NCBI GenBank assembly: GCA_934635225.1
Contig: CAKTYZ010000003.1
Span: forward strand, 99,210 to 163,209
Origin: an uncultured Kiritimatiellota bacterium
GTDB taxonomy: Bacteria; Verrucomicrobiota; Kiritimatiellia; RFP12; UBA1067
Direction of reading: 5' to 3'
DNA: 64,000 bases
Positions 13,697-42,501 of this stretch are shown here, piece after piece; positions within the stretch are counted from its first letter, which is position 1, and each line of letters opens with the position of its first letter. The position numbers and the translations under genes were made by a program. Below the pieces are notes generated by a model that was not told the DNA's origin, made no database searches, and saw only the letters and a list, made by a program, of their open reading frames with translations.

Positions 13697-13898
13697 CGAA
13701 AATGGTACCAAAATGGTAATATCTAACGGGTCAGCAAAGAAGAGAGGCAGGCCATGGGGATCGACAAGGAGAGAAAGCGAACAACGCCACCCCATAGATG
13801 CCGGGGACGGCCCGGAACGGATGCTTCAACCGATGCGGATGGAAGGGGCGTCTCCATGCGGATGGATGAGCCGCCTCCATGCGGATGGGCCGTGGGGA
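13697..13898. repeat. copy 1 of a duplicated ~200-bp intergenic element ending in tandem 22-bp CCATGCGGATGG-containing units
   Basis: Direct sequence comparison with 55935-56136. They share an exact 36-mer AAAATGGTAATATCTAACGGGTCAGCAAAGAAGAGA, then about 130 nt at roughly 85-90% identity, then 2 (here) or 3 (copy 2) tandem units CCATGCGGATGG(A/G)TGAGCC.CC.C. Confidence 0.7.
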
Positions 13899-13981
13899 GC
13901 CTGTCCCTGCCGGGACGCGACGCGTTTCAAGAGCGCATCCCCTCGTCAGAAGGCCTGAAGCAAGGCCGAGTCACAAGTCGT

Positions 13982-14343
13982 TCATTCGCCGCGCAGCCGC
14001 CAGCCGAGCGGCGCGACCGCCAAGCCGTCCGGCAGGGCGTAGGGCCTGTCCGCATAGTTGACGACGATCTCCGTTCCGTCCGACCAGCGCGTCGCGTAGA
14101 CGCCCTCGGCTCGCGGTCCTCGTAGGCGCGAAAGATCCGTTGGACGCCCTCCTTCAGCGCTGCGTTCGAGAGGCCCGTCTCAGGATCGCTCACGTCCGTC
14201 CGCCACTTCCATTCGAGGTAGAGCGGCATGTTCGTGAGCGTGGCGGCGGGCGACGCCTTACGCTGGGGCACGACCCACTCCTCGCCGCGTCCGGACGCGC
14301 CAAAAGCCGCAAGCGCGACAAGAATTCCGCAGATGATTCTCAT
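13982..14343 (-). CDS. small secreted hypothetical protein with an apparent -1 frameshift near 14110
   Basis: Signal peptide MRIICGILVALAAFGASG. The frame is sensible to ..QRIFRAYEDREP, then turns Arg-rich. My translation of the -1 frame continues plausibly (EGVYATRWSDGTEIVVNYADRPYALPDGLAVAPLGWRLRGE*) to a stop at 13982-13984. Confidence 0.3.
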
Positions 14344-14359
14344 TTATGCGCCTCCTTCA

Positions 14360-15832: not shown

Positions 15833-15843
15833 TTCCTTTCTCC

Positions 15844-17949: not shown

Positions 17950-18260
17950 TTTGCTGTTTTCCTGTTTGGCTTATTTTGGATTTTAGAAGTCTTTGAGGGA
18001 AGGCTCTTGAATCAAGGCGCTTCGCGCAGACACGAAACGCCGCCGCTCGCGCGTCCTCATATCAACAGTCTCACGCAGAGCCGCAGAGAACGCAGAGATT
18101 CGCCGGACGCCCCTACGCGCTCTGCGCGAACCCTTGAAACAACACCGAATCAAGGCGTCGAGAAGAACCGCGAAGCCTTTTCGTGTTTCGACGTAAGGCT
18201 TGTTCGGCTTTCGTGGTCTGCGTCGCAGACGCCACCCTCTGACGCCATTGCGCCATTCCG

Positions 18261-21056: not shown

Positions 21057-21065
21057 GTCCTCACC

Positions 21066-23939: not shown

Positions 23940-24000
23940 TTCTTGCTTCCTTGTCGTTATTTCGTCAGTGAACAGAAATCAGATTGCCAAGGACAGTCAA

Positions 24001-24065
24001 TCTCACACGGAGTGACGGAGGCACGGCGACTTGAACGCTCCGTTTCTCCGTGGCTCCGTGTGAGA
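24001..24065 (-). promoter_or_regulatory. long imperfect hairpin (12-bp outer stem TCTCACACGGAG / CTCCGTGTGAGA) in the 5' region of the LamG-protein gene
   Basis: Inverted repeat seen directly at 24001-24012 and 24054-24065, with a nested inner stem (GACGGAG / CTCCGT). Two smaller hairpins follow at 24077-24125. Located 60-170 nt upstream of the 23939 start. Confidence 0.3.
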
Positions 24066-24167
24066 CTAAACCCTGTCTCAGCGAGACAGAATCCTGTCGC
24101 ACAGCAGGCGCACAGCGCAAGCGCACGCAGGGCCATCAGGCGGCCCTCAGCGGCCTCAGCTAAAGGC

Positions 24168-24337: not shown

Positions 24338-26731
24338 TCACCGTGCGCAGCTGAACTTTGGATCCATCGCCCGCAAGACCGTCCAGGCCGCGAGCGCACG
24401 GACGTAGTGGTGCCCGCACTCGGCCTCGTCGAACGGGTTGCGCTTGCGCCCGTCGTAGCGGTCGCGGACGTCGCGGACAACCCGTTCGGCCTCCGCCCGG
24501 TCGTCGTTCCACGCCAGGAGCGCGGCAACGACATACTCGAACCCCGTCATCGTCTCGCGGTAGTACGGGAACGGCGAACGCGGGAAGCGGGCATCAGGAT
24601 ACCACGCCATCTTCAGCGAAACCTCGTCGCCGAGCGCGTAGGAGCGCATCGGATTGAACGTCGCGTCACTCCGCTGGCGGCAACGCGCCACGACCGTCGC
24701 GAGAGCCTTTCTCGCGTGCGCGCGGTCGGCGACTGGAGCTATCCCGGCGGCCTGTGCGGAGAAGTCGCCCAGCAGCTGGTCAATGAGGCAGCCGGCGCCC
24801 AGCTGGAAGTCCGGTTCGGACAGCTCTTCCGCCGTCCGCGCGTGCACCTGCAGGCCGTCGGCCACCGGGCCCTGAGGCGGCGTCACGCGCTGTTCGTAGT
24901 AGACGCCGTTGAACAGGTTCCTCTCCGTCCACGCCGCCCCGCGTCGCTTCAGTTCGCGGCAGGTCTCCGCAAACGCACGGTCGTCGCACATCTCAGACAT
25001 CTGCACGGAGGCCTCCAGCGCGGCCAAGTAAACGAATTCCATCTGCGGATTCGGTCCGTAGTATTCGACGTCCATCGTGTTGTGCTGGCATCCCTCCATG
25101 ACGCCGTCCCGGTCAGCGTCCCAGCCTCCAGAGATCCACGCGAAGGCGAGCGCACGGCGGATGGCCGGCCACGTCTTCCGCAGCCAATCGCGGTCGCCCG
25201 TCTTCCGCACATATTCGAGCGCCTTGACGACGCACTGCATCTGCCCGTCGGCGCACGCGACGCCGAGATCCTTCGCATTGTCCGCCAGCGGCAGTCGAAC
25301 GCGGAAGCGCATGTGGCCGTTCGCCGCGAGCTGGGCGCCGAAGGCGTTGTCCAGCATTGATCGCGCGAGTTCCGGCCACAAATCGACAAGGGCATGTTCG
25401 TAGCCCCACACGTGCGTGCAGTTGCCGTAGCAACTGCCCTCGCCGTCCAGGCACCCCTCCCAGCCGTAGAAGTTGCCGTCCGCCGTCCGAAAGCACGTCT
25501 CCGTGCGCAGCGTCGAGAGGTTGAAGAGCGCCGCCTCCTTCACGACGGCGGGGGCGTCCGCCGCAAGGACACGCCGGACAAACGCGACGGTTCCCGCCTC
25601 CAGTTCCGGCAAGTCGCGCACAAACGCGGCGGCGGCCTCCGCCGCCGAGGCGAACTTCGTCGCGTACCAGTTGCCCAGCACATGGTCAGCGACGTCCTCC
25701 TCATGATTCCACTCCCAGCCGAAGCGGTTGGGGAACCGCCACGCGAGAATGAACGGCACGGCCTTCGTCTCGCCGGGCGCGAGCTCCACCGCGACGGCGA
25801 GCTGGGCGAGCGGCAACTTCTTCGTCGCCGAGGCGTCCTGCGCGTCCGTGTCCGCCACGTCGCCCCGCGCGACAAAGCGTGACCAGAACCGATCCATGCC
25901 AACGCCCCAGCCGGGCTCGCGGACGTCCGTCGCCGTCGAGACCGCACCGACCCCATCCGGCACGAACAGACCGAACTCGCCATCCGCCGCGTTGGCGATT
26001 TCGCCGCCCAGCAGCCGGAACTTCCGCGTGTCGACCTGCCGCCCCGACAGGCAGACGCCCGTAAGACCGCCCTTCTCGACACGGCGCTCGTCGCGGACGA
26101 CGGGCGTCTTGCGGTCGGCGAAACGCGGCGCGCGCCCGCAGCAATTGACCAGCGTGCCGACGACAGACGCCTTGACACGCGACGGCGAGCGGTTCGTCAG
26201 CCGCCAGCGCAGAAGAATGACGGGAAGGCCGCTCTTGAGCGTGTCGCCGGGCACCAGCGGATTCATCGCCTCCAACGTGACGTCCACGGGCATCCCGCCG
26301 TCCGAGAGCTCGACCTGCGCAAGCGGATAGGCGGCCTTGAAGATGGCCTTGCCGAAGCGCGGATAGCCTTGGTTGACGGCGCGCGACCCGACATCGCCCT
26401 CGTATTCCGAAAGCGGCACGGGGCCTTCCAGCAGCCGCGCGACGCGGCGGCCGTCCGCCGTCTCGCACCGCAGGGCGAACGCCGGCTGATAGATCGGCGG
26501 CCAAAGGTAGCTTGTCGACGGAACGAAGCCTTTCGCTGGCTCGTTGAAAATCTCCCAGTCCACGAGTCCGCCTCGACCGGAGAGTGAGATCGTCCCGGTG
26601 CCGATTCCGCCCAGCGGCATCTTCACCTTTTCGAGATTCGCCCCCTCGTAGGTCTTCAGCACAGGCCAGTCCGCCGCGCACAGATGGGCGGCCACAGTTA
26701 GGCAAACGAAACTCAACGCGACTTTTCTCAT
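24338..26731 (-). CDS. GH116-family beta-glucosidase (GBA2-type, non-lysosomal glucosylceramidase-like)
   Basis: Signal peptide MRKVALSFVCLTVAAHLCA. The N-domain hallmark KMPLGGIGTGTISLSGRGG matches the GBA2 PLGGIGGGTI motif. Long catalytic (alpha/alpha)6-type C-region. Start set at M17 because the upstream codons overlap the conserved promoter motif. Confidence 0.6.
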   Translation of the reverse strand: MRKVALSFVCLTVAAHLCAADWPVLKTYEGANLEKVKMPLGGIGTGTISLSGRGGLVDWEIFNEPAKGFVPSTSYLWPPIYQPAFALRCETADGRRVARLLEGPVPLSEYEGDVGSRAVNQGYPRFGKAIFKAAYPLAQVELSDGGMPVDVTLEAMNPLVPGDTLKSGLPVILLRWRLTNRSPSRVKASVVGTLVNCCGRAPRFADRKTPVVRDERRVEKGGLTGVCLSGRQVDTRKFRLLGGEIANAADGEFGLFVPDGVGAVSTATDVREPGWGVGMDRFWSRFVARGDVADTDAQDASATKKLPLAQLAVAVELAPGETKAVPFILAWRFPNRFGWEWNHEEDVADHVLGNWYATKFASAAEAAAAFVRDLPELEAGTVAFVRRVLAADAPAVVKEAALFNLSTLRTETCFRTADGNFYGWEGCLDGEGSCYGNCTHVWGYEHALVDLWPELARSMLDNAFGAQLAANGHMRFRVRLPLADNAKDLGVACADGQMQCVVKALEYVRKTGDRDWLRKTWPAIRRALAFAWISGGWDADRDGVMEGCQHNTMDVEYYGPNPQMEFVYLAALEASVQMSEMCDDRAFAETCRELKRRGAAWTERNLFNGVYYEQRVTPPQGPVADGLQVHARTAEELSEPDFQLGAGCLIDQLLGDFSAQAAGIAPVADRAHARKALATVVARCRQRSDATFNPMRSYALGDEVSLKMAWYPDARFPRSPFPYYRETMTGFEYVVAALLAWNDDRAEAERVVRDVRDRYDGRKRNPFDEAECGHHYVRALAAWTVLRAMDPKFSCAR

Positions 26732-26739
26732 TTCGCCCC

Positions 26740-26790
26740 GTAGTATAGCATCCTCGCCGCGCCAAGGTCCACTACTCAAATGAGTAGTGC
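26740..26790 (-). promoter_or_regulatory. conserved 30-bp palindrome-containing motif plus TATACTAC -10 box (copy 2 of 3) upstream of the GH116 gene
   Basis: On the minus strand: GCACTACTCATTTGAGTAGTGGACCTTGGC, 13 nt, TATACTAC, 8 nt, ATG(26731). The 30-mer is identical at 35972-36001 and 42472-42501. Confidence 0.55.
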
Positions 26791-28151
26791 GTCGTCTGCG
26801 CGGCAGTTGGTGCTTGGACTACTGACCCGACAGTTCGCGCGTCGGAGACCGTGTCCATCGTCTTTGACAACGAACACAGCAAACTCATCCAATCCGGGAT
26901 GTAGTCACCCGCTCCTTCGATTCTAATCACATTCTCCACCTTGCCAGAAATCTCCGGGAGAGAAGACAGCGTGCCGACGATGATGACCTGCTCGGCGTCC
27001 AGCCTCAGATCCATTCGCTTCGGCGAAAGCCAGATCGTCTTTTGCCGTCCCCTTCGTCCGGCATCGTCCGCCTCTCCACAGACAACAACGACCTCCGCCT
27101 CGTCTAGGATTTGCCGTGCGTCTTGCACAATCACAAATGAAGCCGTCGGGAAACCTGTCAAGAACTCGCGTATTTCTCGCGGATACATTTCACCGCCAAG
27201 AACTTTTGAATCCGGCACAAGCCAGAACAATGGGTTCGTTCGCCCAACTTGGATGCCGTAATTTCGCTTCCTGATCAGCGGCGAACCGTCTTCGCCCTGC
27301 AATACAAGTGCCGCACTCGCCACACATCCAAGAAATCCCGTCAGGCCAATTCCCCAAAACAGTGCAAGTCTCAAAAAACTCCACCGCAGAGAAACAAGCA
27401 CACAAACAAGCGTCATTAAAGGAATTACCCACAAACACCAACTTTCACAGACCGAACTAAACAGAGCCGCCACAAAAAGTGCAACCCATTCCGCCCAGCA
27501 CAGCCAAGCTCCCTGCCGACGTCCGACAATAAAACCAAATGGCAGTACAACACTCCACCCCAACAGCCAGACAACGCCTCCGACAATGCCCGTTTCGACA
27601 ATCCACGTCAAGTGGCTGTTAACCAGAGTCCGATAGCGTTCCTTGCGATCCAAAGGCTGATACCACTGCATATAAGCCTCGCCTGAGTTCCCGATCCCCC
27701 AGCCGAACGGTGCGTCCAACATCATACGAGGTGCTGTCTGCCAAAGTTCAAGACGATTGCCGACAGAGCGATCTTCACGCAAGAACTCAGGTGCCAATCG
27801 TCCGACAACCCCCATCTGAATGGACAGCAGGCAGAACCCCACCACAACCGTCAAGAGGCTCGCCTTGACAAGCGTTCTCATGCTTTTCATGCGACGCAAA
27901 ACCACAAGTGCCAATGGAACAGAGGCAACTGCCAGTGCAACAATTCCACCTCGTGAGAACGTGTGCAGAAGAATGTACAGAGAACCCACAGCAAGCGCAG
28001 CTCCAAGAATACGGGCAAATCGACGAGCGGAACATGCCAAAGCCAATCCGATCAGAACCAGTTCGACAGCCAACACAGCCAGCTTGTTCGGATTGTCGAA
28101 CCCGAACTGCCAACGCACAATGCCATTGTAAAAGAAAGAGGCCAACAGCAT
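26772..28151 (-). CDS. O-antigen ligase / Wzy_C-family polytopic membrane protein
   Basis: 459 aa with multiple TM helices. Periplasmic-loop motif FGWGIGNSGEAYMQWYQ...RTLVNSHLTWIVETGIVGG matches the Wzy_C / WaaL signature (GxGxGN ... HNsyL..ETG). The last 6 codons run into the 30-bp motif. Confidence 0.55.
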   Translation of the reverse strand: MLLASFFYNGIVRWQFGFDNPNKLAVLAVELVLIGLALACSARRFARILGAALAVGSLYILLHTFSRGGIVALAVASVPLALVVLRRMKSMRTLVKASLLTVVVGFCLLSIQMGVVGRLAPEFLREDRSVGNRLELWQTAPRMMLDAPFGWGIGNSGEAYMQWYQPLDRKERYRTLVNSHLTWIVETGIVGGVVWLLGWSVVLPFGFIVGRRQGAWLCWAEWVALFVAALFSSVCESWCLWVIPLMTLVCVLVSLRWSFLRLALFWGIGLTGFLGCVASAALVLQGEDGSPLIRKRNYGIQVGRTNPLFWLVPDSKVLGGEMYPREIREFLTGFPTASFVIVQDARQILDEAEVVVVCGEADDAGRRGRQKTIWLSPKRMDLRLDAEQVIIVGTLSSLPEISGKVENVIRIEGAGDYIPDWMSLLCSLSKTMDTVSDARTVGSVVQAPTAAQTTHYSFE

Positions 28152-28157
28152 ATGCGA

Positions 28158-29861
28158 TTACTCGGCCTTCCACAATTCCGCTATCGGGCGGCTGGGCAGC
28201 ATCACGCGATAGGCATCGGGAATCTCATCGCCTTGCGCACGTGCGACACAGCGCAGATTCACAACATCACCAACCAGCGGAGCCGAATCAAATAACGTGC
28301 GCCAATTGACCGCTGCCGAACGCCGCGTTCTGTCTAGCGCCAACTGAAACACGGCCCGTCCCAACCGTTCTGCCGCGCCACACCCCGAATGGCCAAGCCC
28401 CGGATAGGCTCGATAGAGAATCGGGTATTCCTTATCTTTAGCCGCCTTGAAGAACGCAAGGGAGCGTTCGTAACCACATTCATTCTCACCCGTCGTGAGG
28501 CACCAGAGGATAGATGCGCCTCCGCTCGTCGGCTCATCGAAACTGCTTGGAATGTGAATGTGAACGGCCAAAAACCGCTCAGGCTTGCGCAAGGCCAGAC
28601 GCTGTGCATACTGCGCGGCGCCCGAATACCCCCAAAGCAAAAACCGCACATCAGGAATTCTTTCTTCCCGGACAAGACCATCTACACACTTTGACCACGC
28701 TTCAGAAACCTGATCAAACGCACGATCTGCCGTGCGCGCCTCTTGTCGCGTGAGATCCGTCCAGTTCTTGCGCGGATTCCACAGATGCCGCGCGGAGCCC
28801 CAGGCGACGACTGCAAGCTTGTTGCTCTCGGCAAAGGCGACCATGCGCCCGACCTCAGAGGCAATATTCCCCGTGACAATCTTCGCAGGGATGTCGTCCG
28901 GACTGTTCGCAAGCAGGCTCAGGCAAAGCACGCCTCGCGGGATCTCGTTTCTTCGTGTGCGCAGAAAGACTGTCAGGACAGGCTGAGCCGTCGGCTTTGC
29001 CCTCATAGTCCGACGGAGAATTTCAATCTTGTCGCGCCTCGTCAAGCTTCGCCAACGCAGCAACAACTCTTCCGACGGAAGCCAAAACGAATTGACGTCC
29101 TCCGCTTTTGGTAGACGATTCCCTCGTGTGCCCGTGATGGCATTCGCCCAAACGCCCCCTTCTGCACGGCGACGTCCTTGCAGTTTTAAGATCTCAAGAA
29201 AATAGGCTCGCACAAAATCTTCTAAAACCGCACTACGACTGTGACCAAGCCCCGGAACATCCACCCATGTCCACCGTCGAGCGGCTGCGCGCCCATCATG
29301 AAAGTGCGACAGGCAAGTACCATAACGAAAATCTTCCGTTCCGCAGGCTACAATGCCCGGCGGCCTTTCGCCCCCAATCTGCGACAGACCCTGCCACCAA
29401 CCAGCGGAAGCTGCGCACCACGCCGTGACACGTGAAGGGAACTGTTCAGCGAAACTTGCGGCAAAATGCGCGCCGCCGGAAAACCCGTAAACAAACAGCG
29501 GCAACCGTCCCAATCCGACGGAATCAAGAAACGTCAACAATTTCAGGCCGGATCCTGACCGCGCATCGTAGTAGCCATGTCCCTGTTTCAAATCCGCAAC
29601 AGGGGAACGGAAGGTGACGGCAACCAGTGCTATCGCGTTTGACTGCGCGAACGAAACCCACGCCTTTTCTTTGAGATACACCGAGGCATCGCCATTTGCG
29701 CCCGCAAGCACCACCATGACCGCGCGACAATTCTTCACCTCGCAGACAGGATGGATCAGTGCCTCGAAATGCACTTCTTGCGGCTGATCCTCCGCACGGA
29801 TCGTCACACAGAAGATTGCCGCAAACGCGGACACGAGCAACATGAAAGACGCAGGCTTCAT
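28158..29861 (-). CDS. secreted tandem alpha/beta-hydrolase (two esterase domains)
   Basis: 567 aa with a signal peptide. Two nucleophile elbows, GFSGGA and GYSGAAQ (GxSxG), each followed by a His near the domain end (GLGHS.. twice). Confidence 0.55.
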   Translation of the reverse strand: MKPASFMLLVSAFAAIFCVTIRAEDQPQEVHFEALIHPVCEVKNCRAVMVVLAGANGDASVYLKEKAWVSFAQSNAIALVAVTFRSPVADLKQGHGYYDARSGSGLKLLTFLDSVGLGRLPLFVYGFSGGAHFAASFAEQFPSRVTAWCAASAGWWQGLSQIGGERPPGIVACGTEDFRYGTCLSHFHDGRAAARRWTWVDVPGLGHSRSAVLEDFVRAYFLEILKLQGRRRAEGGVWANAITGTRGNRLPKAEDVNSFWLPSEELLLRWRSLTRRDKIEILRRTMRAKPTAQPVLTVFLRTRRNEIPRGVLCLSLLANSPDDIPAKIVTGNIASEVGRMVAFAESNKLAVVAWGSARHLWNPRKNWTDLTRQEARTADRAFDQVSEAWSKCVDGLVREERIPDVRFLLWGYSGAAQYAQRLALRKPERFLAVHIHIPSSFDEPTSGGASILWCLTTGENECGYERSLAFFKAAKDKEYPILYRAYPGLGHSGCGAAERLGRAVFQLALDRTRRSAAVNWRTLFDSAPLVGDVVNLRCVARAQGDEIPDAYRVMLPSRPIAELWKAE

Positions 29862-32170
29862 TTTCTCAGGACAAGATCCGGTGCATAGATGATGTTATCC
29901 TCGCTTTTCGGAAGTTCAGGCTGAACCTCTCTGGTCACAAGTTCCCGCGTCCGCCTATCCAGCAAGTTCCGCTTGCTTCGCAAAAGCGCAATCACCTCCC
30001 TGACCGGTTTGGCGTTCCGCTCGGAGATCAACTTGACTTCAGTCCGCGTCCCATCCGTTGTCTCAGACGAAAACGTGTCGGCTCCTTCATACAGGCCACC
30101 TGAACGCATCTCGCCGAAATCGCCACGCGAGAAATAGGACATGAGCGAATGAACCCTGACCGGCGGAAGGTGTTCAAACCGATACCGCCCCGCACTGTCG
30201 GTTTTCGTCCACCGTTCAGGATACGTCACAAGTTCAAGTCCTGGCAAGAAAGTCCCCTTGATCCGAACGCCGCCCTGCGGACGTCCACGCTCATCGACAA
30301 CTCGCCCCGAAACAGTGACCATCATGGACGCGGGGAACACCTCAACGGCAAGATGCACGTCATTCGATCCCTTTGTAAAACGTCCGTCAGGCAGAATCCG
30401 AAAACGCAAGCCATCAAGACGCTCCATGAGCAGCACGTTCTGCTGATCGACTCTCCAGTCTCCCGGTTCAAGATCCACTCCACGCTCCTTGATGCAATCG
30501 ATTTCCAGATGATGTGCCTGTCCACCAGATCCAACGACATCAATCCCATACTTCTCTGTTGGCGGAGGACACATTCGTTCGTAAAACCGCGCCAACGCCA
30601 CAGACATCTTTTCGGGCGTATCCGCAACTTTCAATTCCGCCAAATCAAACGCCGTCACGTCGGGATGCACAACGAACCCATAGAAACTCGTATTTCGAGC
30701 CGCCTCCCTGGTCACTTCCTCCTGAGTCTTAATCTGCGGCTCAGGCCGTTTGACTCCTTTCTTCACATCTTCATGCCATTTCACGAACTCTTCCGCGTTT
30801 GGGACAAAGCGATTGACAATCTTGCCATTTCGTACGCTGGCAACCTGTTTTCCTGTTGACGTATACAGGTAGTCGCAATCGCTCTTCTCGTCTCCGCCGC
30901 TCCGAGTCCGCAACAGTCTTCCATTCTTGACGTCAAACCAGAACTCGACAGAAAGACCTGTTTTTGGCATGATTTTGCAATAGGTCAAGCGACCTGTTTC
31001 CATGTATCGGCTCTCGGTTGTCGTGCCGGATTTCCGATCCGTCTCCAGCGTCATGGACAACGCGCCCTTTTCGTCATAGGCGTATTCAGTCCGACTGCCA
31101 TATCCCTGCGAATATGTCGTTTCCAGCCATCGCTTCTTGCCGCGAAGATTCTTGCCCGATGTGAACACGCGCCAGACACGCCGACATTCTTTCCGTTCGC
31201 TGACTCTCATGCCCGTTTCGAGATTCGCGTACTCCTCCTCCGTCTCGCCATCTGGTCGCTTGCGGAGAATGTGCGCATTTCGCCGCTTCGCATCGACTTT
31301 CGTGATGACATAAGTCCAGTCGTTCAGCGAAAGGATCTGCCGCGTCCCTAAGTCATACGCATAGTTCCGCTCTCCATCCGAGAAAGTCGCCCGCCCTTTC
31401 TTTGCCAAGCCATGGACAATCCGATACGTCCGTCCGCCAGACTTCAACTGGACAACGGACATCCGCTCTTTCTGAAGCCCCCACTGTCCATTCGCATTCA
31501 GACCTCCGACACGCACGGGTGCCAAAAGGACTTCAGCCCTTCCGCCATCCGTAAACGCAATCGTCCGCATTTGGCCGCTCTCCCTGCCGCCCGTTTCCAT
31601 CCGGCACAAGACCTTGCCGCCACAGACCATCTGCTCGAAAGTCCCGTCCGCCGAATAGCGGAACTCGACCGACAGCCCTCGCGTGTTCATTCTCACGAGC
31701 CGACCGTTCCTGAAAACGAGGTCGGGGAGCTTCTTCTCCAATCGCCAATAGAAGCGAGTCTCGCCGCCGTTCGTCACGCAACCGGAACCACGGCGTCCGC
31801 GCCACAGGTTCGGGCGTTCCTCCTTCCTGAGCCAGAACTTCCGCACAATTCCGTCCGGGCTGTGCATCACAAGACAGTCCCGACTGACAGGATAGATTCG
31901 CGACTCAAACCAGGGGATGCGCCAACCGTAGCCCAGAGTCGTCTTGCCACTCGGCTCTTCGGACGACCAGTAGGCATAGACCGTGCATTTCTTCGGCCCG
32001 AACGACAACGTACCCAACGGATATTCGGCGATTGCGTGACCAATGGCATCCGTCCCCTCAATTGCACTGTCCGCCAACGCCGCTCCACTGTGGAGCGGCA
32101 TCCTCATCCGCCCACCCTGCGACACACAGCCGACGCAAGCAAAACCAACGGCTAAGACAATGCGTTTCAT
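29858..32170 (-). CDS. lipoprotein with C-terminal CarboxypepD_reg-like (transthyretin-fold) domain and conserved ..NIIYAPDLVLRK tail (paralog 1)
   Basis: 770 aa. Lipobox LAVGFACVGC. Near the C-terminus VTVSGRVVDERGRPQGGVRIKG..YRF is a CarboxypepD_reg-like beta-sandwich. The tail is shared with 32177-33094 and 33559-34482. Confidence 0.4.
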   Translation of the reverse strand: MKRIVLAVGFACVGCVSQGGRMRMPLHSGAALADSAIEGTDAIGHAIAEYPLGTLSFGPKKCTVYAYWSSEEPSGKTTLGYGWRIPWFESRIYPVSRDCLVMHSPDGIVRKFWLRKEERPNLWRGRRGSGCVTNGGETRFYWRLEKKLPDLVFRNGRLVRMNTRGLSVEFRYSADGTFEQMVCGGKVLCRMETGGRESGQMRTIAFTDGGRAEVLLAPVRVGGLNANGQWGLQKERMSVVQLKSGGRTYRIVHGLAKKGRATFSDGERNYAYDLGTRQILSLNDWTYVITKVDAKRRNAHILRKRPDGETEEEYANLETGMRVSERKECRRVWRVFTSGKNLRGKKRWLETTYSQGYGSRTEYAYDEKGALSMTLETDRKSGTTTESRYMETGRLTYCKIMPKTGLSVEFWFDVKNGRLLRTRSGGDEKSDCDYLYTSTGKQVASVRNGKIVNRFVPNAEEFVKWHEDVKKGVKRPEPQIKTQEEVTREAARNTSFYGFVVHPDVTAFDLAELKVADTPEKMSVALARFYERMCPPPTEKYGIDVVGSGGQAHHLEIDCIKERGVDLEPGDWRVDQQNVLLMERLDGLRFRILPDGRFTKGSNDVHLAVEVFPASMMVTVSGRVVDERGRPQGGVRIKGTFLPGLELVTYPERWTKTDSAGRYRFEHLPPVRVHSLMSYFSRGDFGEMRSGGLYEGADTFSSETTDGTRTEVKLISERNAKPVREVIALLRSKRNLLDRRTRELVTREVQPELPKSEDNIIYAPDLVLRK

Positions 32171-32176
32171 CTATAT

Positions 32177-33094
32177 TTACGGCAAGGCGATATCTGGCAC
32201 ATAGATAACGTTGTTCGTGCTCACGGGAAATCCTCTAATTGGCGCTTTCAGAGGATAAGGCTTTCCTTTCTTTCTCTCATAGGCAGACACGATTCTCTCT
32301 GCAGATGTCCTCAGGGACGCTGTAAGTGTCAAGACTTCAACTTCTTTCACCTGTAGGTCTCGCTCAATCCCCTCTCGAATCCCTATACGTACGGAAAGAG
32401 GGGAATCCTCAAAACACGTTCGTCTCAACATATTCGTATTCGCCATAAAGACCGCCGCATCATTCAACGACGGCAATCTTAACCCCTCACAACTCCAATA
32501 GCCATCTTGTCTTGACACTGTGAACATTGCGGAGACTTTTTTCAGATTCTCATTCTCTGAATATGGAAATTGCATAATTTCAATTTGTCTCCCCGCAACG
32601 GGATTCCCATTCTTGTCTACGCAGCGTCCCTGTAGTGTCAGATTTTCTCGGTACAATTCCACGTAACAACTTTTTTCTAAAGGCATCTTTGATGCCATCC
32701 CAAAGTAGCGAATCTCCTTATCTTTTATAATCTCCACAAAGTCTGCAACAACCCAATACATTGAAGAGGATACGTCTGGCATTACGATGGAGAACCATCC
32801 TTTCTGATCGGAACTTCCCCTCGCAACAACTTTGCCATCGGGAAACGACAGAACTTGCACATTGGCGGAAACCACACGACGACGAAAGCCATTTCTCTTT
32901 GAGAATCGTTTTTGAGCCTCATTCTCAATAACAACTCGCAAGGACTCCTCGGCCGATTGGTCGTATGCGGCTGCAATCTCATTTGCCGTCAACTCATCGA
33001 CTCGCCATACTTCACCTTCTATCTTTGTTGCGCGACAGATGTAGACACCACAAAAAAGCAACATCATCGTAACACAAAATTTTTTAAAAAGCAT
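32177..33094 (-). CDS. lipoprotein, CarboxypepD_reg-like domain, conserved ..FPVSTNNVIYVPDIALP tail (paralog 2)
   Basis: 305 aa. Signal/lipobox MLFKKFCVTMMLLFCGVYIC. LQGRCVDKNGNPVAGRQIEI motif. Lower-GC DNA. Confidence 0.4.
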   Translation of the reverse strand: MLFKKFCVTMMLLFCGVYICRATKIEGEVWRVDELTANEIAAAYDQSAEESLRVVIENEAQKRFSKRNGFRRRVVSANVQVLSFPDGKVVARGSSDQKGWFSIVMPDVSSSMYWVVADFVEIIKDKEIRYFGMASKMPLEKSCYVELYRENLTLQGRCVDKNGNPVAGRQIEIMQFPYSENENLKKVSAMFTVSRQDGYWSCEGLRLPSLNDAAVFMANTNMLRRTCFEDSPLSVRIGIREGIERDLQVKEVEVLTLTASLRTSAERIVSAYERKKGKPYPLKAPIRGFPVSTNNVIYVPDIALP

Positions 33095-33111
33095 ATCACA
33101 TACTTCCTAAT

Positions 33112-33543
33112 TTATTCAACAGTATCACCTTGTAAACAAGCATCAGATGCTTCGCAGACATCTTCTGTTCCGCACGAATCATTCTCACGACACAGATCTT
33201 CTTCTTCACATCTATCTTGAAGACAGGGCTCATCACCAGCAGGCATTGACAGAAGGCAAGAATCTGCATTTGCACGACCACCAGGACAATCATCGGAATA
33301 CTTCAGTTCTGGTAAACAAACGTCTTCCGTGTCTCGACCACCTGGGCAGGTGTCGGATTCTTCACTCTCTGAGGTTGCTGGTTGACAGAAGTCCTGGCTG
33401 TGTCCACCTCCAGGACAGAGAGGTGGCAGAAATGGAGAATCTGTCGCCAGCACTGTGTCCGTGAAGGTAAAGTGTGCGAATCCACCAGCCATCAAAATTT
33501 GAAAAAGTCGATGCGCGAACTGACGACAAGAGATATTCTGCAT
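33112..33543 (-). CDS. Cys/Asp-rich repeat peptide (candidate RiPP precursor or secreted metal-binding peptide)
   Basis: 143 aa (start uncertain). Three D-x-C-P-G-G repeats (LCPGGGHSQDFC, DTCPGGRDTEDVC, DDCPGGRANADSC), then five hexads DRCEEE DLCREN DSCGTE DVCEAS DACLQG D, i.e. (DxCxxx)5, which is CxxxD spacing. Fifteen nt downstream of a gene and 17 nt upstream of the next one in the same operon as a radical-SAM/SPASM gene. Confidence 0.45.
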   Translation of the reverse strand: MQNISCRQFAHRLFQILMAGGFAHFTFTDTVLATDSPFLPPLCPGGGHSQDFCQPATSESEESDTCPGGRDTEDVCLPELKYSDDCPGGRANADSCLLSMPAGDEPCLQDRCEEEDLCRENDSCGTEDVCEASDACLQGDTVE

Positions 33544-33558
33544 TGTAAGTATTCCTTT

Positions 33559-34482
33559 TTATTGCAGAACCAGATCCGGCACATAGATGACATTGTTCGT
33601 GCTGACTGGAAAATTCGTCATCGGATTCAAACGTTTCATTTTCTTCCCCGATTTACGTTCCGTGGCGGCAATGGTCTTTTCTACCGCCCTGTGGTTCTCA
33701 TCCGTGACATTGGGGACAACCCGTTCAGCATCATATGAACCAAAAGGTTTGCGCCGCGCATATATCCCCAATTGCAAAGGATAGTGACTGACCTGCCAAT
33801 TGTCCACGATATTCGTATAACAGATGTAGGACATCAAAGGGATGATCGGAGGAGAGGCAAGCCCGTCTACACGCCATCTTCCAAGCGTATCCGTCACCGC
33901 CAGTTGTGTTGGACAAAGACGGCATTCCTCCTCCGTTTCTCCAGACGTAATCGGATGCACATAAACAAAAACGCCCTGTGCCGGAGTACCGTCTTTCTGC
34001 ACACACCTTCCCATTGCTGAAGCATATGAACGCATCATGGTTATGTTCGCTTCATAATATGCCGCATTACGCCTCTTATATGTCCGGGACACCCCAACAT
34101 ACAAGACAGGTCTACCAAACTCCTCACGGACAACCTTACTATAGGCTCGCCATAACGAATCTTTCCCAGGCATTACAACAGAATAATTTCCATCCTGATC
34201 GACCTTTCCGCGACCAACAACCTTGAAGTCGGGAAGCGTCTGTATCTCAACCGTCGCACCAACGGGAATGGTCATATATTTGATGCCTTGAGCATTTTGT
34301 CGCTCCATGATTTGCCGTGCGGCAAGTTCAGGGATACGTGCACCCGTTGTCGCATATTCCTCAGCGACTTCCGCAATGCTCGGCGTCGCCTCAAGTCGCA
34401 CCCAGCCCTTGACAACATCTCCACTTGCATTTACAGCAACTAATAAAGATGCAACCGTTCCCATCAATTTCCGTGCTTTCAT
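33559..34482 (-). CDS. secreted protein, CarboxypepD_reg-like domain, conserved ..FPVSTNNVIYVPDLVLQ tail (paralog 3)
   Basis: 308 aa. The ORF track fuses this with the upstream radical-SAM reading frame. The real start MKARKLMGTVASLLVAVNA (ATG 34482) lies 13 nt after the radical-SAM stop. AMGRCVQKDGTPAQG motif. Confidence 0.45.
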   Translation of the reverse strand: MKARKLMGTVASLLVAVNASGDVVKGWVRLEATPSIAEVAEEYATTGARIPELAARQIMERQNAQGIKYMTIPVGATVEIQTLPDFKVVGRGKVDQDGNYSVVMPGKDSLWRAYSKVVREEFGRPVLYVGVSRTYKRRNAAYYEANITMMRSYASAMGRCVQKDGTPAQGVFVYVHPITSGETEEECRLCPTQLAVTDTLGRWRVDGLASPPIIPLMSYICYTNIVDNWQVSHYPLQLGIYARRKPFGSYDAERVVPNVTDENHRAVEKTIAATERKSGKKMKRLNPMTNFPVSTNNVIYVPDLVLQ

Positions 34483-34495
34483 GATTCTATTCCTT

Positions 34496-35610
34496 TCATT
34501 GTTTTGCGTACAAGGACGCAAACCATGCCTCCTGCATAATCCAACGTTTTGAATCCTCACAATTCCGCTCAGACAGGGCAAATGTTCCGTCCGGACGAGC
34601 GACCTCCCACGGGCATGGGCCTTTGCAAAACGGGTAGGCCCAGCATCCGAAGCAATGTCCTTTGACAAGCTCGCGATACTTACGCCAAAACGTCTGACAC
34701 TTTTCAACGTCAGGGCCATCCAAGACAGATCCAACAACCCAGTTCTCCATGCCGACAAAACGGTGACATGGATAGGGCGTTCCGTTCGCCCCGACCGTCG
34801 TCGTCCCGCGACAGGCGCCGCATCGAAAGGGTGAAATCGGCTCTGCCTCCAGTTTCTTCGCGCCATCAGCCTTTTGATTCCTGCAACGGCCAGATCAAAC
34901 GACCCCGTTCCCGTGCGCGTCGGGCACTGCCCGTCATGGCGTTCCTTCGGCCCGTCCAGACTGACCATCAGACCAAAGTTGTATCTCTTGATGACAGAGA
35001 TCACGTCATCGTCAATGAGCGTTCCATTCGTCGTCATCGAATAGAACACCTTCTTGCCATGAAGCTTCGCCAACCGCTGACTGTATGCCACCGCGAACAG
35101 CAAGACCTTCTTGTTCATCAGCGGCTCACCACCAAAGAACGTGATCCCAACCTCCTTTGAACGTCCGCTGACGGCGAACAGCCAGTTGATGGCCGCACGG
35201 GCAATCGTCTCGCTCATTCGGCCTTGATTTGGCACTTCATCGCGACACGTCCCGCAATAGCAATACCGACACGCGAGATTGCAGACCTCTGATAGGGCAA
35301 GCTCTAATTTTGTCCACGGAGCCTCATAGCGAAGTCGCAACAGTCGATCAAATTCCGCATCCGTCGGAATCGGCTGTTCACACGGCTCAAAAAAGCCCGA
35401 CTCCTCCAAGGCTGATATTTCACGCCTCAACCCTTCGTTCTCAGGCGACGCCTGTTCACCTGCCGCTCGCCGTTCCAAATGGGACTTTGCTTCTTGCGAG
35501 ATTTTCAACGGGCGTTTCAGCCCCCTATGCGCGACGAACGAATCGCCCTGATATGAAAAGACATGATAGGGAACTTCCTCAAGAATCCGTTCCATAAATT
35601 CAACCTCCAT
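34496..35610 (-). pseudogene. radical SAM / SPASM-domain enzyme (peptide-maturase-like) with an apparent frameshift near 34850-34895 and a shortened core; possibly a pseudogene or assembly indel
   Basis: Frame A carries ..LELALSEVCNLACRYCYCG (CX3CX2C), GITFFGGEPLM and SLDGPKERHDGQCPTRTGTGSFDLAVAGIKRLMA (an anSME/SPASM-subfamily block). It then becomes Arg-rich nonsense. Frame +2 opens at 34894 and reads KKLEAEPISPFRCGACRG..(x14)..C ... KGHCFGCWAYPFCKGPC ... C, i.e. SPASM CX2CX5CX3C clusters, ending at 34496. There are about 110 aa ahead of the CX3CX2C, which could be an RRE-type N-domain. The core-to-SPASM spacing looks about 50-90 aa shorter than in anSME/PqqE-type enzymes. Confidence 0.55.
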
Positions 35611-35971
35611 ATGCTCGCGCCAACACTCCAACTGAAGACGAGAACCACACAGATATCGCCACATATGCAATAACATGGAAAAGTATACCTTATTTTCATT
35701 TGGCTTGTCAATCATGCGACCATGACAAATTAGAAACCACGACAGTAGATGCAAGTCTCCGCAGGTGTGGCATCGCGCGGAGGGGCGGGAAGTGGCGCGA
35801 GTGAGGAGCGAGGGTTTGCAGACGTCGAAGGGGTCTCGCCCGCAGCCCGTGGTCTCGCCGAGGCATGGCAGGCTGAAGCCGGACGGTTGTCTTCAGAAAG
35901 AAGCGCAACCCCGAACGATGAGACCGAGCGAACAGCTTCCCGCTCCGACGCGCGCACTGTCAAGCCGACAT

Positions 35972-36038
35972 GCCAAGGTCCACTACTCAAATGAGTAGTG
36001 CCGCGCACGACATCAACAACGCCACAGTTTGGTATACT
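35972..36038 (+). promoter_or_regulatory. conserved 30-bp motif (copy 1 of 3) plus TATACTAC -10 box upstream of the sensor-kinase gene (near-leaderless start)
   Basis: Plus strand: GCCAAGGTCCACTACTCAAATGAGTAGTGC (35972-36001), 31 nt, TATACT (36033-36038), 7 nt, ATG 36046. The motif orientation is inverted relative to the two minus-strand copies. The same motif could also serve the divergent radical-SAM operon. Confidence 0.5.
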
Positions 36039-36045
36039 ACACGCC

Positions 36046-36978
36046 ATGAGACGATGCGTTTACCTTCTGCTGGCCGGCCTCGCGCTGTTGCCGTCCGCCC
36101 TGCTGTCGGCGCCGCCCGAGCTGACAGGCGTCGGCGGCGACGGACGCCTCGACGCCGACAGCGTCTTCGTGCGGTCACCGTGGTGGCTACACACGGAACT
36201 CCTCGTCATCATCGGCGTCCTGCTCGTCGTCCTCGTCGCCGTGAGCGCCTGGAACCGCTCGATCCGCATCGTCGCCCGGCGGCAGGCGCACCGGCTCGCA
36301 GAAGAGGCGCGGCGGCTCGCGCAGGAAGAGACCGCCCATGCGCGCACGCGGCTGAAGGTCGAGGAGCGCACCGAGCTGGCCGTCGAGATCCACGACTCCG
36401 TCTCGCAGGCCCTGACCGGCATCGCCCTCCAGCTCGAAGCCGCCCTCGCCACCAGTCGGCAAGACCCCGCGCGCGCGGAAAAAAGCCTCATGACGGCGAG
36501 TCAGATGCTGGCCTCCTGCCGGCATGAACTGCGCGGCTGCCTCTGGGACCTCCGCACGCGCACCTTCGAGGAGCGCGACCTGACCGAAGCCCTCGTCCAG
36601 ACGCTCGCCCCGCATCTCAAGGACGTCCGCGCGCACGTGCGCTTCAACGTCTCGCGCAACCGCCTGTCCGAAAGCACGACACACGCGATCCTCAAGATCG
36701 TGCGCGAGCTGACGGTCAACGCCATCCGGCACGGACGAGCCACGACCCTCCGCATCGCCGGCGAAATGTCCGACGGTGCCATCCAGTTCTCCGTCACAGA
36801 CAACGGCTGCGGGTTCGATGCGGCGACCGCACCAGGCCCGCGGGACGGGCATTTCGGCCTGCAGGGAATTCGCGAACGTCTCCGCAAATGCAAGGGCACG
36901 CTGACCTTCGATTCCGGCCCGTCCGGGACGCGCGTCGCCGTCACGATGCCGCAGGACCTCGAAGAGGAGGATCCATGA
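36046..36978 (+). CDS. sensor histidine kinase, NarL/LuxR-partner type (HisKA_3 + HATPase_c)
   Basis: Signal/TM segment, second TM, then EIHDSVSQALTGI (HisKA_3 H-box) and the N/G boxes (NAIRHG, DNGCGF, GLQGIRER). Stop overlaps the response-regulator start (ATGA). Confidence 0.8.
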   Translation: MRRCVYLLLAGLALLPSALLSAPPELTGVGGDGRLDADSVFVRSPWWLHTELLVIIGVLLVVLVAVSAWNRSIRIVARRQAHRLAEEARRLAQEETAHARTRLKVEERTELAVEIHDSVSQALTGIALQLEAALATSRQDPARAEKSLMTASQMLASCRHELRGCLWDLRTRTFEERDLTEALVQTLAPHLKDVRAHVRFNVSRNRLSESTTHAILKIVRELTVNAIRHGRATTLRIAGEMSDGAIQFSVTDNGCGFDAATAPGPRDGHFGLQGIRERLRKCKGTLTFDSGPSGTRVAVTMPQDLEEEDP

Positions 36979-37613
36979 GCCCCTCCGCCGCGCCAAAGAA
37001 AATCCGCATCCTGCTGGCGGACGACCACCTGATCGTCCGCATGGGCCTCGCCACCATCATCGCCCTCGAACCAGACCTGGAGATCGTCGGCGAGGCTGAA
37101 GACGGCTCCGAGGCCGTCCGCCTCGCAGACGCACTCGCGCCAGACGTCATCGTGATGGACATCATGATGCCGAACGTGGACGGGGCGGAGGCGACACGGC
37201 AGATCCTGTCTCGGCATCCGACGGCGAAGATCCTGTTGCTGACAACGTTCAGCAAGGCGGCGGAGATTCGCACTGCCCTCGGACACGGCGCACGCGGCGC
37301 CCTGCTGAAAGACGCCTCCCGACGGACGTTCGTCGAAGCCATCCGCCGTACGGTGGACGGACGACAGACGATCAGCCCTGAAATCGAACGCGAGATCGTG
37401 CTGGCCCAAAGCCTTCCGCCGCTCTCCGTTCGGCAGAAGACGATCCTCGGCTATGTCGCCAAGGGCTTCAGCAACCGGGAAATCGCGCGATTCGAGAACA
37501 TTTCCGTTGACGGTGTCCGTGCGCACCTGAAGACCATCTTCGCGCGTCTCGGAGTCGCCTCCAGAACGGAAGCGGCAACGACAGCCCTCGAGCTGAAACT
37601 GATCGACGCTTAA
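36975..37613 (+). CDS. NarL/LuxR-family response regulator
   Basis: KIRILLADDHLIVRMGL receiver domain with the phospho-acceptor Asp context VIVMDIMMP, and a C-terminal LuxR HTH (LSVRQKTILGYVAKGFSNREIA). Confidence 0.85.
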   Translation: MSPSAAPKKIRILLADDHLIVRMGLATIIALEPDLEIVGEAEDGSEAVRLADALAPDVIVMDIMMPNVDGAEATRQILSRHPTAKILLLTTFSKAAEIRTALGHGARGALLKDASRRTFVEAIRRTVDGRQTISPEIEREIVLAQSLPPLSVRQKTILGYVAKGFSNREIARFENISVDGVRAHLKTIFARLGVASRTEAATTALELKLIDA

Positions 37614-42421: not shown

Positions 42422-42450
42422 GGCAGATGGTTTCCTCTTTCATTCCGCCA

Positions 42451-42501
42451 ATAGTATAACACGCACGTCGCGCCAAGGTCCACTACTCAAATGAGTAGTG
42501 C
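42451..42501 (-). promoter_or_regulatory. conserved 30-bp motif plus TATACTAT -10 box (copy 3 of 3)
   Basis: Minus strand: GCACTACTCATTTGAGTAGTGGACCTTGGC, 13 nt, TATACTAT, 29-nt leader with AGAGGA SD, ATG(42421). Sits between the clpB 3' end and the small Cys-protein gene. Confidence 0.55.

Follow-up and report, generated by a model that had tools for sequence, protein, structure and literature searches.

Gene content and base composition of the locus

The locus that concerns us here is a block of low guanine-cytosine (GC) content in a 64,000-nucleotide stretch of contig CAKTYZ010000003.1 (positions 99,210 to 163,209; assembly GCA_934635225.1, from an uncultured Kiritimatiellota bacterium), hereafter the window. 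The block carries seven open reading frames (ORFs), all on the minus strand, and lies between the gene of a GH116 glycosidase and a NarL/LuxR-type two-component system made of a histidine kinase (36,046-36,978) and a response regulator (36,975-37,613). In the direction of transcription, the ORFs correspond to a radical-SAM/SPASM maturase (here a pseudogene), a 307-amino-acid (aa) protein with a conserved C-terminal tail motif, a truncated Cys-rich repeat protein, two further tail-motif proteins of 305 and 770 aa, a 567-aa secreted protein and a polytopic membrane protein of the Wzy_C family. The coordinates of all features are given in Table 1.

A sequence-only reading of the window had described 32.2-35.7 kb as an AT-rich interval of 42-50% GC between flanks of about 60-65%, containing the radical-SAM gene, the Cys-rich ORF of 143 aa and the 307-aa and 305-aa tail-motif paralogs. 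All of these genes are there, and the dip was confirmed: GC over 32,177-35,750 is 0.489, compared with a mean of 0.613 (sd 0.034, minimum 0.569) for same-size windows outside 26,772-35,754, and the lowest GC of the whole window begins at 32,151 at window sizes of 1, 2.4 and 3.6 kb (z = -4.5 to -3.7). At a resolution of 300 bp, values of 0.42-0.51 were obtained from 32,150 to about 34,700, the upper third, up to 35,750, being milder (0.46-0.58). The 305-aa gene has the lowest GC among the long genes (0.448; third-position GC, GC3, 0.454). The high-GC flank was found on the right side only, where GC steps up to 0.62-0.72 (the 60-70% range); on the left, 26.8-32.2 kb stays at 0.51-0.61 without returning to 60-65%. 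Since the genes of this left part also have a GC3 of 0.56-0.63, below the host minimum and well under the host mean of 0.77, it belongs to the same deviant block. Indeed, the seven ORFs in 26,772-35,610 have GC3 values of 0.33-0.63, all lower than those of all 26 verified host genes (0.768 +/- 0.070, range 0.65-0.89, minimum 0.649; Mann-Whitney U = 0, p = 3e-5). The tetranucleotide comparison proposed together with the sliding-window GC also revealed a deviation, the composition-normalised correlation with the rest of the window being 0.67-0.80 across 25.5-36 kb and 0.83-0.94 elsewhere. Our results show that the compositional unit measures about 9 kb (9,181 bp; GC 0.532 versus 0.664 and 0.643 in the 5-kb flanks), and that the 3.6 kb first noted are its most extreme, AT-richest third.

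The ends of this unit are marked by a perfect 30-bp direct repeat, GCCAAGGTCCACTACTCAAATGAGTAGTGC, with a palindromic core (CACTACTC-AAAT-GAGTAGTG, 8+4+8). The sequence-only reading had taken this motif as the right bound of the AT-rich interval. It is indeed present there (copy B), but a second perfect copy (copy A) bounds the block on the left too: both copies are identical at 30/30 positions, lie 9,211 bp apart and exactly bracket the low-GC3 block (0 expected by chance). Just inside them, two 20-bp inverted repeats pair at 18/20 positions, a value reached in 0/300 shuffles (maximum 15). The ends of the insert (217 bp and about 80 bp) are GC-rich and have no match in any other variant of the island.

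Table 1. Features of the locus in the window, and location and GC of related islands in other genomes
Feature	Position or context	Strand	Remarks
GH116 glycosidase gene	24338..26731	-	host flank; direct divergent neighbour of the kinase in L064
Direct repeat copy A	26761..26790		holds the stop codon of the island Wzy_C ORF
Genomic island, 9,181 bp	26791..35971	-	seven ORFs between the direct repeats; defined by GC, GC3, tetranucleotides and absence in L064
Wzy_C (O-antigen-ligase-like) polytopic membrane protein, 459 aa	26772..28151	-	PF04932, 63.8 bits (cut-off 31.7)
Right inner inverted repeat	26828..26847		CGACAGTTCGCGCGTCGGAG; 37 bp inside copy A
Internal block, 6,280 bp	27042..33321	-	absent from L065, L066 and L067
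567-aa secreted protein	28158..29861	-	two homologous halves with GFSGG and GYSGA motifs
770-aa protein	29858..32170	-	YD/RHS-like N-terminal part, CarboxypepD_reg beta-sandwich, tail NIIYAPDLVLRK
305-aa tail-motif protein	32177..33094	-	ends FPVSTNNVIYVPDIALP
Truncated Cys-rich [D/E]-x-C repeat ORF	33112..33543	-	143 aa, 12 Cys
307-aa tail-motif paralog	33559..34482	-	signal peptide, beta-sandwich domains, ends FPVSTNNVIYVPDLVLQ
Maturase pseudogene, 3' part	34496..34859	-	SPASM cysteine motifs in another frame
Radical-SAM/SPASM maturase pseudogene, 5' part	34860..35610	-	about 250 codons with the CNLACRYC cluster motif
Best sigma-70-like promoter of the region	35682..35711	-	TTGACA-18-TATACT (11/12); 72 bp upstream of the maturase start
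Left inner inverted repeat	35943..35962		CTCCGACGCGCGCACTGTCA; 9 bp inside copy B
Direct repeat copy B	35972..36001		histidine-kinase side, 45 bp upstream of the kinase start
NarL/LuxR-type two-component system	36046..37613	+	host flank, transcribed away from the island
Third motif copy C	42472..42501		same orientation, identical; upstream of the 85-aa / FGE-sulfatase / ADP-ribosylglycohydrolase-GH5 operon
L003 island	between acyl-CoA-ligase-like gene and folE		GC 0.526; flanks 0.704 / 0.628
L017 island (L017-L019)	between SIMPL and EF-G		GC 0.479; flanks 0.606 / 0.615
L028 island	between ABC-F ATPase and OadA-like gene		GC 0.577; flanks 0.683 / 0.671
Akkermansia muciniphila island	between RF1 and Na/Ala symporter		GC 0.346; flanks 0.587 / 0.564
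Verrucomicrobia L031 island	other context		GC 0.518; flanks 0.53, level

States of the locus in related genomes

Human-gut metagenome contigs (Hadza and other cohorts) of up to 259 kb match the window with full identity, and its ProS shares 84% identity with a protein assigned to a Kiritimatiellae metagenome-assembled genome. Both junctions of the block were recovered at 99.6-100% identity in more than 20 independent assemblies (SPAdes, MEGAHIT and Logan contigs), in which the contigs spanning it measure 67-259 kb. The full block (state 2) is found at this position in all contigs that encode the exact kinase or GH116 protein, or a 305-aa protein 99% identical to that of the window. Differing ORF lengths on the metagenome contigs were discarded as structural variants, because contigs L001-L002 and L004-L016 are 99.6-100% identical and the lengths reflect differences in gene calling.

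A shorter form (state 1) was found in three samples, on contigs L065 (143 kb), L066 and L067. These have flanks 97-99% identical to those of the window and keep both repeats, but lack an internal block of 6,280 bp. Its loss joins the 5' end of the Cys-rich gene to a 3' remnant of the Wzy_C gene, and state 1 is therefore a deletion derivative. The ends of the missing block fall within about 27 bp of those of a segment (33,294-27,016) that is shared with an island in another genome, L003.

A third form (state 0) is represented by L064, a contig about 89% identical to the window that carries the response regulator, the kinase, one motif copy and the GH116 gene, and no island genes. Positions 19-1675 of L064 align to 37,629-35,973 of the window and positions 1647-1974 to 26,790-26,463, and the overlap of both alignments is the single motif copy. 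L064 is hence a candidate for the expected empty site, a divergent promoter region of about 100 bp with one palindrome. A more distant relative, L035 (about 80%), has the motif and the GH116 gene with unrelated DNA upstream, free of island genes, and another gene order downstream, which gives partial support for the empty site. A second independent empty-site contig was sought through the members of the GH116 cluster, and only the short state 1 form was found. The sequence-only reading had named, as a refutation of acquisition, the occurrence of these genes in relatives at an identical place and with equal composition. The outcome is mixed: conspecific strains show it, a more distant relative does not.

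Related modules at other genomic sites

The genes of the block form a module that comprises a radical-SAM/SPASM maturase, a [D/E]-x-C protein of about 390 aa, beta-sandwich tail proteins, a YD-like protein, a hydrolase-like protein and a Wzy_C protein. It was found at five other unrelated chromosomal sites, namely on three high-GC gut contigs (L003, L017 and L028), in Akkermansia muciniphila and in a Verrucomicrobia metagenome-assembled genome (MAG; L031). In four of these five contexts the module lies 10-24 GC points under its flanks. The contrast extends to Akkermansia, in which the proteins have diverged to about 50% identity and GC3 is 0.21-0.28 in the module and 0.66-0.74 in the flanks. 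Among seven island copies, six are markedly richer in AT than their host. Low GC thus accompanies the module permanently in nearly all of the hosts compared, and it would be too simple to take it for a sign of recent transfer from a low-GC donor.

Comparison of the window with L003 revealed 95% nucleotide identity over 6.3 kb (33,294-27,016), while the flanks of both islands share nothing. Within this segment, the 305-aa gene is nearly 100% identical (1 mismatch in 800 bp) and the rest 87-98%. On the other hand, L003 has nothing equivalent to the adjacent segment (34,508-33,295), which spans the 307-aa gene together with the 5' end of the Cys-rich one; its only matches are in L017 (71%) and L028 (79%). 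Part of the module is also plasmid-borne: a mobilizable (MOBF) plasmid of Opitutaceae bacterium TAV5 (L068, CP007054.1, 6,660-28,464) carries the hydrolase-like pair, Wzy_C and the YD-like gene, mostly unannotated in its gene table, and neither maturase nor repeat protein.

The 30-bp motif is absent from the islands of L003, L017, L025, L028, Akkermansia and L031, and a scan for it in the metagenomes of the Joint Genome Institute gave no match. No phage match carrying the module was found; this, together with the lack of mobility domains and of a system recognised by PADLOC, led us to reject a prophage, an integrative and conjugative element or a defence island. We found no description of the module for Akkermansia or Verrucomicrobia in the literature searched.

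When 185,579 species genomes were scanned with an alignment of the 567-aa protein, a single locus was recovered (L028, CAVEVC010000091.1), which indicates that such islands escape MAG binning. In this copy the maturase has undergone an independent in-frame deletion (301 aa), the Wzy_C gene is split, and the genes for the Cys-rich and the 770-aa protein are missing. It lies on a 10-kb contig of a MAG named 'Clostridiales bacterium CCNA10', in which the flanks have about 70% GC and the island is a decayed copy of the type found in the Planctomycetes-Verrucomicrobia-Chlamydiae (PVC) superphylum; the assignment is probably a binning or naming problem.

Proteins encoded by the island

The maturase of the window matches maturase models at positions 3-226 of 459 only. 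Compared with L003 (2,719-2,986), a single 268-bp deletion (89 codons plus 1 nt) removes residues ~253-342 and shifts the frame of the SPASM part, so that the cluster motif and the SPASM motifs, which share one frame in L003, L017, L025 and Akkermansia, no longer do so. The same break recurs in more than 20 independently assembled contigs, which demonstrates that this is a real pseudogene. The window maturase scores 58.6 bits for PF04055, 25.2 bits for the SPASM fragment (cut-off 27) and 142 bits for the PapB model (NF047865). A 731-aa ORF (33,559-35,754) was rejected as a single protein, being the frameshifted maturase read out of frame into the 307-aa gene. Proteins of 678-752 aa listed as 'radical SAM' in public gene catalogues (for example P0120) are likewise artefactual fusions of the maturase, the out-of-frame SPASM part and the 307-aa gene.

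The intact maturase of L003 scores best with the models for PapB (241 bits; 240.9), nif11-type (207), QhpD (191; 190.6) and SCIFF maturases (189; 188.9), under every curated cut-off in each case (NF047865, 340; TIGR03974, 425; TIGR03906, 453), and its closest solved structure is CteB (E = 7e-39). The enzymes of these families form thioether links to Cys; PapB and QhpD join Cys to carbons of Asp or Glu, QhpD acting on a protein-sized substrate (PMC8172795). PADLOC gave only weak pVip matches over the generic radical-SAM core and no defence-system protein.

The presumed substrate of the maturase is the Cys-rich repeat protein, whose intact relatives measure 388-394 aa and hold 33-34 Cys spaced about 10 residues apart. 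An acidic residue precedes the Cys by two positions (-2) in 33/34, 33/33, 33/34, 29/31, 32/34 and 11/11 cases in six proteins, where about 8 are expected. No other offset is enriched; at +4, the position of the Cys-X3-Asp motif of PapB substrates, 5 cases were observed in L003 and 8.5 expected, and these offset statistics rule out a PapB-like motif. By eye, the N-termini look like twin-arginine signals (SRRVFAQRL in L003, SRRQFSQRL in L017, SRRAFARSV in L031, SRRQFAHRL in L065, and also in L025), the motif being degenerate in the Akkermansia protein. The window reads SCRQF at 33,525-33,530 (codons 5-6), where L065 and L017 read SRRQF; this is a recent Arg-to-Cys replacement that adds to the truncation. 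The truncated ORF is a hybrid, with an L017-type N-terminus and an L003-type C-terminus joined out of register. In Akkermansia muciniphila (L029 and L030, GCA_039066425.1, ~10.5-11.5 kb), the Cys-rich gene is intact (348 aa) in one strain and split (89 + 213 aa) in the other; the substrate gene therefore decays in this species too.

With the maturase frameshifted, the substrate truncated and its twin-arginine motif broken, the cross-linking core of the module is dead in the window, and the accessory genes are intact. Furthermore, the decay observed in the window, in L028 and in one Akkermansia strain shows that the core has been lost repeatedly while accessory genes persist.

Among these accessory proteins, the tail-motif proteins have a beta-sandwich fold and a conserved C-terminal tail. 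For the 307-aa paralog, the only relatives are those of the L017 type (65% aa identity) and the L028 type (79% nucleotide identity); L003 lacks it. More distant tail-motif members of 301 aa (L021-L024, relatives of P0010) stand beside tsaD and a gene of metallo-beta-lactamase fold, with no maturase or Wzy_C gene nearby; the tail-motif proteins are hence not strictly bound to the module. The YD/RHS-like part of the 770-aa protein is homologous to a separate 421-aa protein of Akkermansia, and the 567-aa protein results from the fusion of two genes which Akkermansia and the TAV5 plasmid keep apart. The latter protein is the most conserved of the module (74-94% identity). It gave only faint alpha/beta-hydrolase signals, its profile search against the PDB was insignificant and its single-sequence AlphaFold model (pLDDT, the predicted local confidence, 37) was unusable. 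The last ~26 codons of the Wzy_C gene run through the inner inverted repeat into copy A. Five of the six module proteins have no NCBIfam match above cut-off, and no family of sugar-nucleotide synthesis, glycosyltransferase, flippase (Wzx) or ABC exporter was found among the island proteins (Pfam and NCBIfam).

Origin of the island

Taken together, these data make it probable that the block is a 9.2-kb genomic island, acquired laterally at the GH116/two-component promoter region and carrying an envelope cargo conserved in the PVC superphylum. Five independent lines of evidence argue for acquisition: the composition, the empty site, the 6.28-kb polymorphism, the presence of the module at unrelated sites with up to 95-100% nucleotide identity, and the plasmid copies. 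The horizontal acquisition proposed in the sequence-only reading is thereby supported, with a different extent: the acquired unit measures 9.2 kb (26,791-35,971) instead of 3.6 kb, and includes the third tail-motif gene, the hydrolase-like gene and the Wzy_C gene.

Several observations weigh against this interpretation. The sole empty-site contig is 1,974 bp long with 1.75x coverage, and its junction could be a chimeric join across the 30-bp repeat; moreover, every conspecific strain found carries the island at this site. Pfam domains reveal no integrase, transposase or relaxase in the island or the 64-kb window, and no tRNA or structured RNA lies in or near the island, the only tRNA of the window (Ala) being at 49,354. 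The other copies of the island have no flanking repeats above chance, which together with the lack of the 30-bp motif in them also eliminates this repeat as a feature of the island family. For L003, L017 and L028, the differing flanks could formally result from a loss of synteny among vertically related genomes. The function of the module, including thioether chemistry, Tat (twin-arginine translocation) export and envelope location, is predicted from sequence, and the acidic residue of the repeat lies at -2, outside the Cys-X3-Asp register of PapB. Lastly, a third identical copy of the motif (copy C) is located 6.5 kb from the island; because of this copy, and because the motif is kept upstream of GH116 in the ~80% relative L035, the 30-bp repeat is a host element of regulatory type and not an att site borne by the island.

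The position of the motif agrees with such a role, as a promoter scan revealed a TG-extended promoter-like site for GH116 (26,771-26,742, minus strand) whose -35 is overlapped by copy A. Copies A and C moreover lie in 63 bp of common sequence (86% identical; 26,728-26,790 and 42,440-42,501) that includes the TGCTATACT box. In L035, GH116 is directly followed by the 85-aa, FGE-sulfatase and ADP-ribosylglycohydrolase-GH5 genes, that is, by the genes that follow copy C in the window. The shared 63 bp and this gene order suggest an older rearrangement that duplicated the motif together with the promoter. TGnTATACT boxes stand near several promoters (26,742-26,750 for GH116, ~36,030-36,038 for the kinase, ~42,450 for the copy-C operon and ~10,880 of L003 for folE), and may represent the extended -10 element that these bacteria normally use.

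In the scenario that we favour, the island would have inserted into the ~100-bp divergent promoter region between the GH116 gene and the two-component system. Entry would have taken place by recombination at the 30-bp palindrome, mediated by a recombinase acting in trans or by homology-facilitated or illegitimate recombination. The inverted repeats and the lineage-specific 'adapter' ends favour an att-like use of the palindrome by a recombinase in trans. A host operator that simply served as the target is favoured, in turn, by the existence of a third copy, by the location at a promoter and by the fact that no other island contains the motif. The alternative to an att-like use would be recombination between an incoming copy of the motif and the resident one. 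After its entry the island has gone on exchanging DNA with sister islands: it is a mosaic of L017/L028-type and L003-type DNA, with one gene nearly 100% identical to L003 and a 6.3-kb block that some strains have and others lack.

A rival reading is that the block is an integrative element, the 30-bp palindrome being the true att site of a dedicated site-specific recombinase encoded elsewhere, comparable to the XerCD dif/pdif systems. Here the inner inverted repeats would be arm sites, and the three motif copies recombination sites and not operators. The perfect 30-bp core with its 8+4+8 palindrome, the inverted repeats, which lie no more than 9 and 37 bp from the core and are significant against shuffles, and the GC-rich ends unique to this lineage are all compatible with it; so are the motif copies that mark the older rearrangement (the 63-bp A/C duplication and the gene order of L035) and the lack of a recombinase in the island, a feature shared with dif modules. 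We nevertheless find it rather doubtful. The motif occurs only in the neighbourhood of this lineage and in none of the other island copies, which are moreover free of flanking repeats, no recombinase candidate was identified, and a copy A that sits on a promoter -35 and is kept upstream of GH116 in island-free relatives fits an operator. Besides, the central spacer of the palindrome is 4 nt long, while that of dif sites is 6 nt.

It is unlikely, too, that the locus is ancestral and vertically inherited, its low GC being maintained by selection or by a locus-specific bias, as has been proposed for wzx/wzy and further genes of surface structures. The empty site of L064 and the short form of L065 would then be deletions, the former produced by recombination between the 30-bp repeats. 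Such a view accounts well for a module that is low in GC even in the distant Akkermansia, at ~50% protein identity, which is hard to reconcile with one recent transfer, as well as for the presence of the island at the same site in all conspecific strains and for the absence of mobility genes; L065 is, besides, clearly a deletion derivative. Yet the module occupies six unrelated chromosomal positions and its genes are plasmid-borne in Opitutaceae, and the islands of the window and L003 are 95-100% identical over 6.3 kb between flanks that share nothing. Furthermore, the bracketing repeats are identical at 30/30 positions while the homologous DNA around the locus has diverged by 11-20% in relatives, and a host operator doubled around the insert is the expected product of an insertion and is needless for an ancestral locus.

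Coding constraints could in principle produce a dip without foreign origin, given how unusual the make-up of Cys/Asp-rich and membrane proteins is; such compositions are indeed found in the Cys-rich ORF and in Wzy_C. This is very improbable, as the contrast is greatest at synonymous third positions (GC3 0.33-0.63 versus 0.65-0.89), affects all seven ORFs, ordinary globular ones included, and extends to GC-normalised tetranucleotides. Finally, a chimeric assembly or contaminating lower-GC DNA joined to a high-GC contig, in favour of which one could cite the many short-read assemblies that break at or near the island ends (one contig starting exactly at the repeat) and the implausibly named MAG with a 10-kb contig as sole reference-genome match, is practically eliminated by junctions that recur at 99.6-100% identity across independent samples and assemblers, with 67-259-kb contigs spanning the island.

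Returning to the laterally acquired island, we propose that in its intact form the maturase, which belongs by homology to the thioether group (relatives of PapB, QhpD and SCIFF/CteB), would cross-link the acidic [D/E]-x-C protein of about 390 aa in the cytoplasm. The cross-linked protein would then be exported in folded form by Tat and act at the envelope together with the beta-sandwich, YD-like, hydrolase-like and Wzy_C proteins. By analogy with surface-polysaccharide loci, its low GC may be a persistent trait of a surface-structure cassette that circulates laterally, and more than a trace of recent entry. More tentatively, one may imagine an undescribed cassette, PVC-wide in distribution, in which a radical-SAM/SPASM enzyme staples a Tat-exported protein of ~350-390 aa at ~30-34 [D/E]-x-C sites, its AT-richness in most hosts being due to a shared mobile pool or to selection (for example for silencing or regulation), as for O-antigen loci. 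Its product would be protein-scale, cross-linked by multiple thioethers, and would work alongside Wzy_C and the beta-sandwich proteins of the surface.

Comparison with known systems

In its deviant composition, flanking direct repeats, presence or absence in relatives and accessory surface cargo, the island resembles classical genomic islands, and with dif/pdif modules it shares the lack of an internal recombinase and a short palindromic site at both ends. It departs from classical islands in having no tRNA target and no integrase, in that its repeat is a pre-existing promoter-proximal motif of the host with a third copy nearby, in that its other copies lack a bracketing repeat, and in having given no evidence of excision. 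The island itself is of an ordinary kind, and its cargo is a hitherto undescribed variant among the radical-SAM systems that modify proteins, set in a surface-structure cassette that is usually AT-rich compared with its host. It is also unusually well resolved, since the junctions are exact, there is a candidate for the empty site and the polymorphisms among strains are nested, and it offers an example of an integrase-less cassette that landed in a host operator.

In composition and evolution, the closest analogue is the O-antigen-type locus of Enterobacteria. The O-antigen clusters of Salmonella have 28-45% GC in a genome of 51-52%, with the lowest values in wzx and wzy (PMC3715488). Like the island, O-antigen loci (rfb/wzx/wzy) are discrete, lie between conserved housekeeping genes and have low GC with sub-blocks of differing GC; they also encode a Wzy-family membrane protein, are recombination mosaics, move laterally without mobility genes of their own and undergo block replacement at the strain level. 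Unlike them, the island carries no sugar-nucleotide, glycosyltransferase or flippase genes, Wzy_C being its only polysaccharide-type component, and the core of the module consists of a radical-SAM enzyme, a ribosomal Cys-repeat protein and beta-sandwich proteins.

Enzymatically, the ranthipeptide, SCIFF and QhpD systems are closest, but the maturase of the module falls short of the family cut-offs and comes with another substrate motif. The PapB/freyrasin, SCIFF/CteB and QhpD/QhpC pairs share with the module a similar maturase and, for PapB and QhpD, donor and acceptor residues (Cys and Asp/Glu) that are abundant in the adjacent substrate; QhpC is moreover a protein and not a short peptide, as is the substrate of the module. 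The latter differs from all of these in its length (~390 aa), its ~34 repeats with a spacing of ~10 residues, the acidic residue at -2 and the signal of twin-arginine type. In addition, the module is linked to Wzy_C, YD-like and beta-sandwich genes, which are missing from the known systems, and the enzyme of the window is a pseudogene. The Cys-every-fifth CefA/CefB, CXXX-repeat and CcpM systems likewise have a radical-SAM/SPASM enzyme beside a periodic Cys-repeat substrate, but the module scores far below their cut-offs (92/600 for CefB, 74/350 for CXXX-repeat and 155/500 for CcpM), and differs in its period of ~10 residues, its obligatory acidic residue at -2 and its far larger substrate.

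Conservation of the six-gene module extends from gut Kiritimatiellae as far as Akkermansia muciniphila. There is no family name for five of the six proteins, and the module pairs a radical-SAM enzyme of thioether type with a very large, strictly periodic [D/E]-x-C protein. As Akkermansia is cultivable and genetically tractable, it allows direct tests of the chemistry as well as of the role at the envelope. In practice, the broken maturase is mis-called as fusion proteins of 678-752 aa in public catalogues.

Neighbouring regions

Glycan-degrading enzymes neighbour the island. A second flexible region lies beside it at 13,907-24,141, where the window reaches its highest GC (0.64-0.71), with genes for an alpha-amylase-like protein, a GDSL+AP_endonuc_2 protein, a 931-aa protein and a 957-aa Laminin_G_3 protein. 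L065 replaces this region with genes for GH16, a fucosidase, a beta-helix protein and a Laminin_G_3 protein of 1,147 aa, the DNA on either side being 97-99% identical. Finally, an intergenic repeat of about 190 bp occurs at 13,710-13,889 and 55,937-56,117 (85% identical); it contains 23-bp tandem units, CCATGCGGATGGnTGAGCCnCC, and has no match in Rfam.

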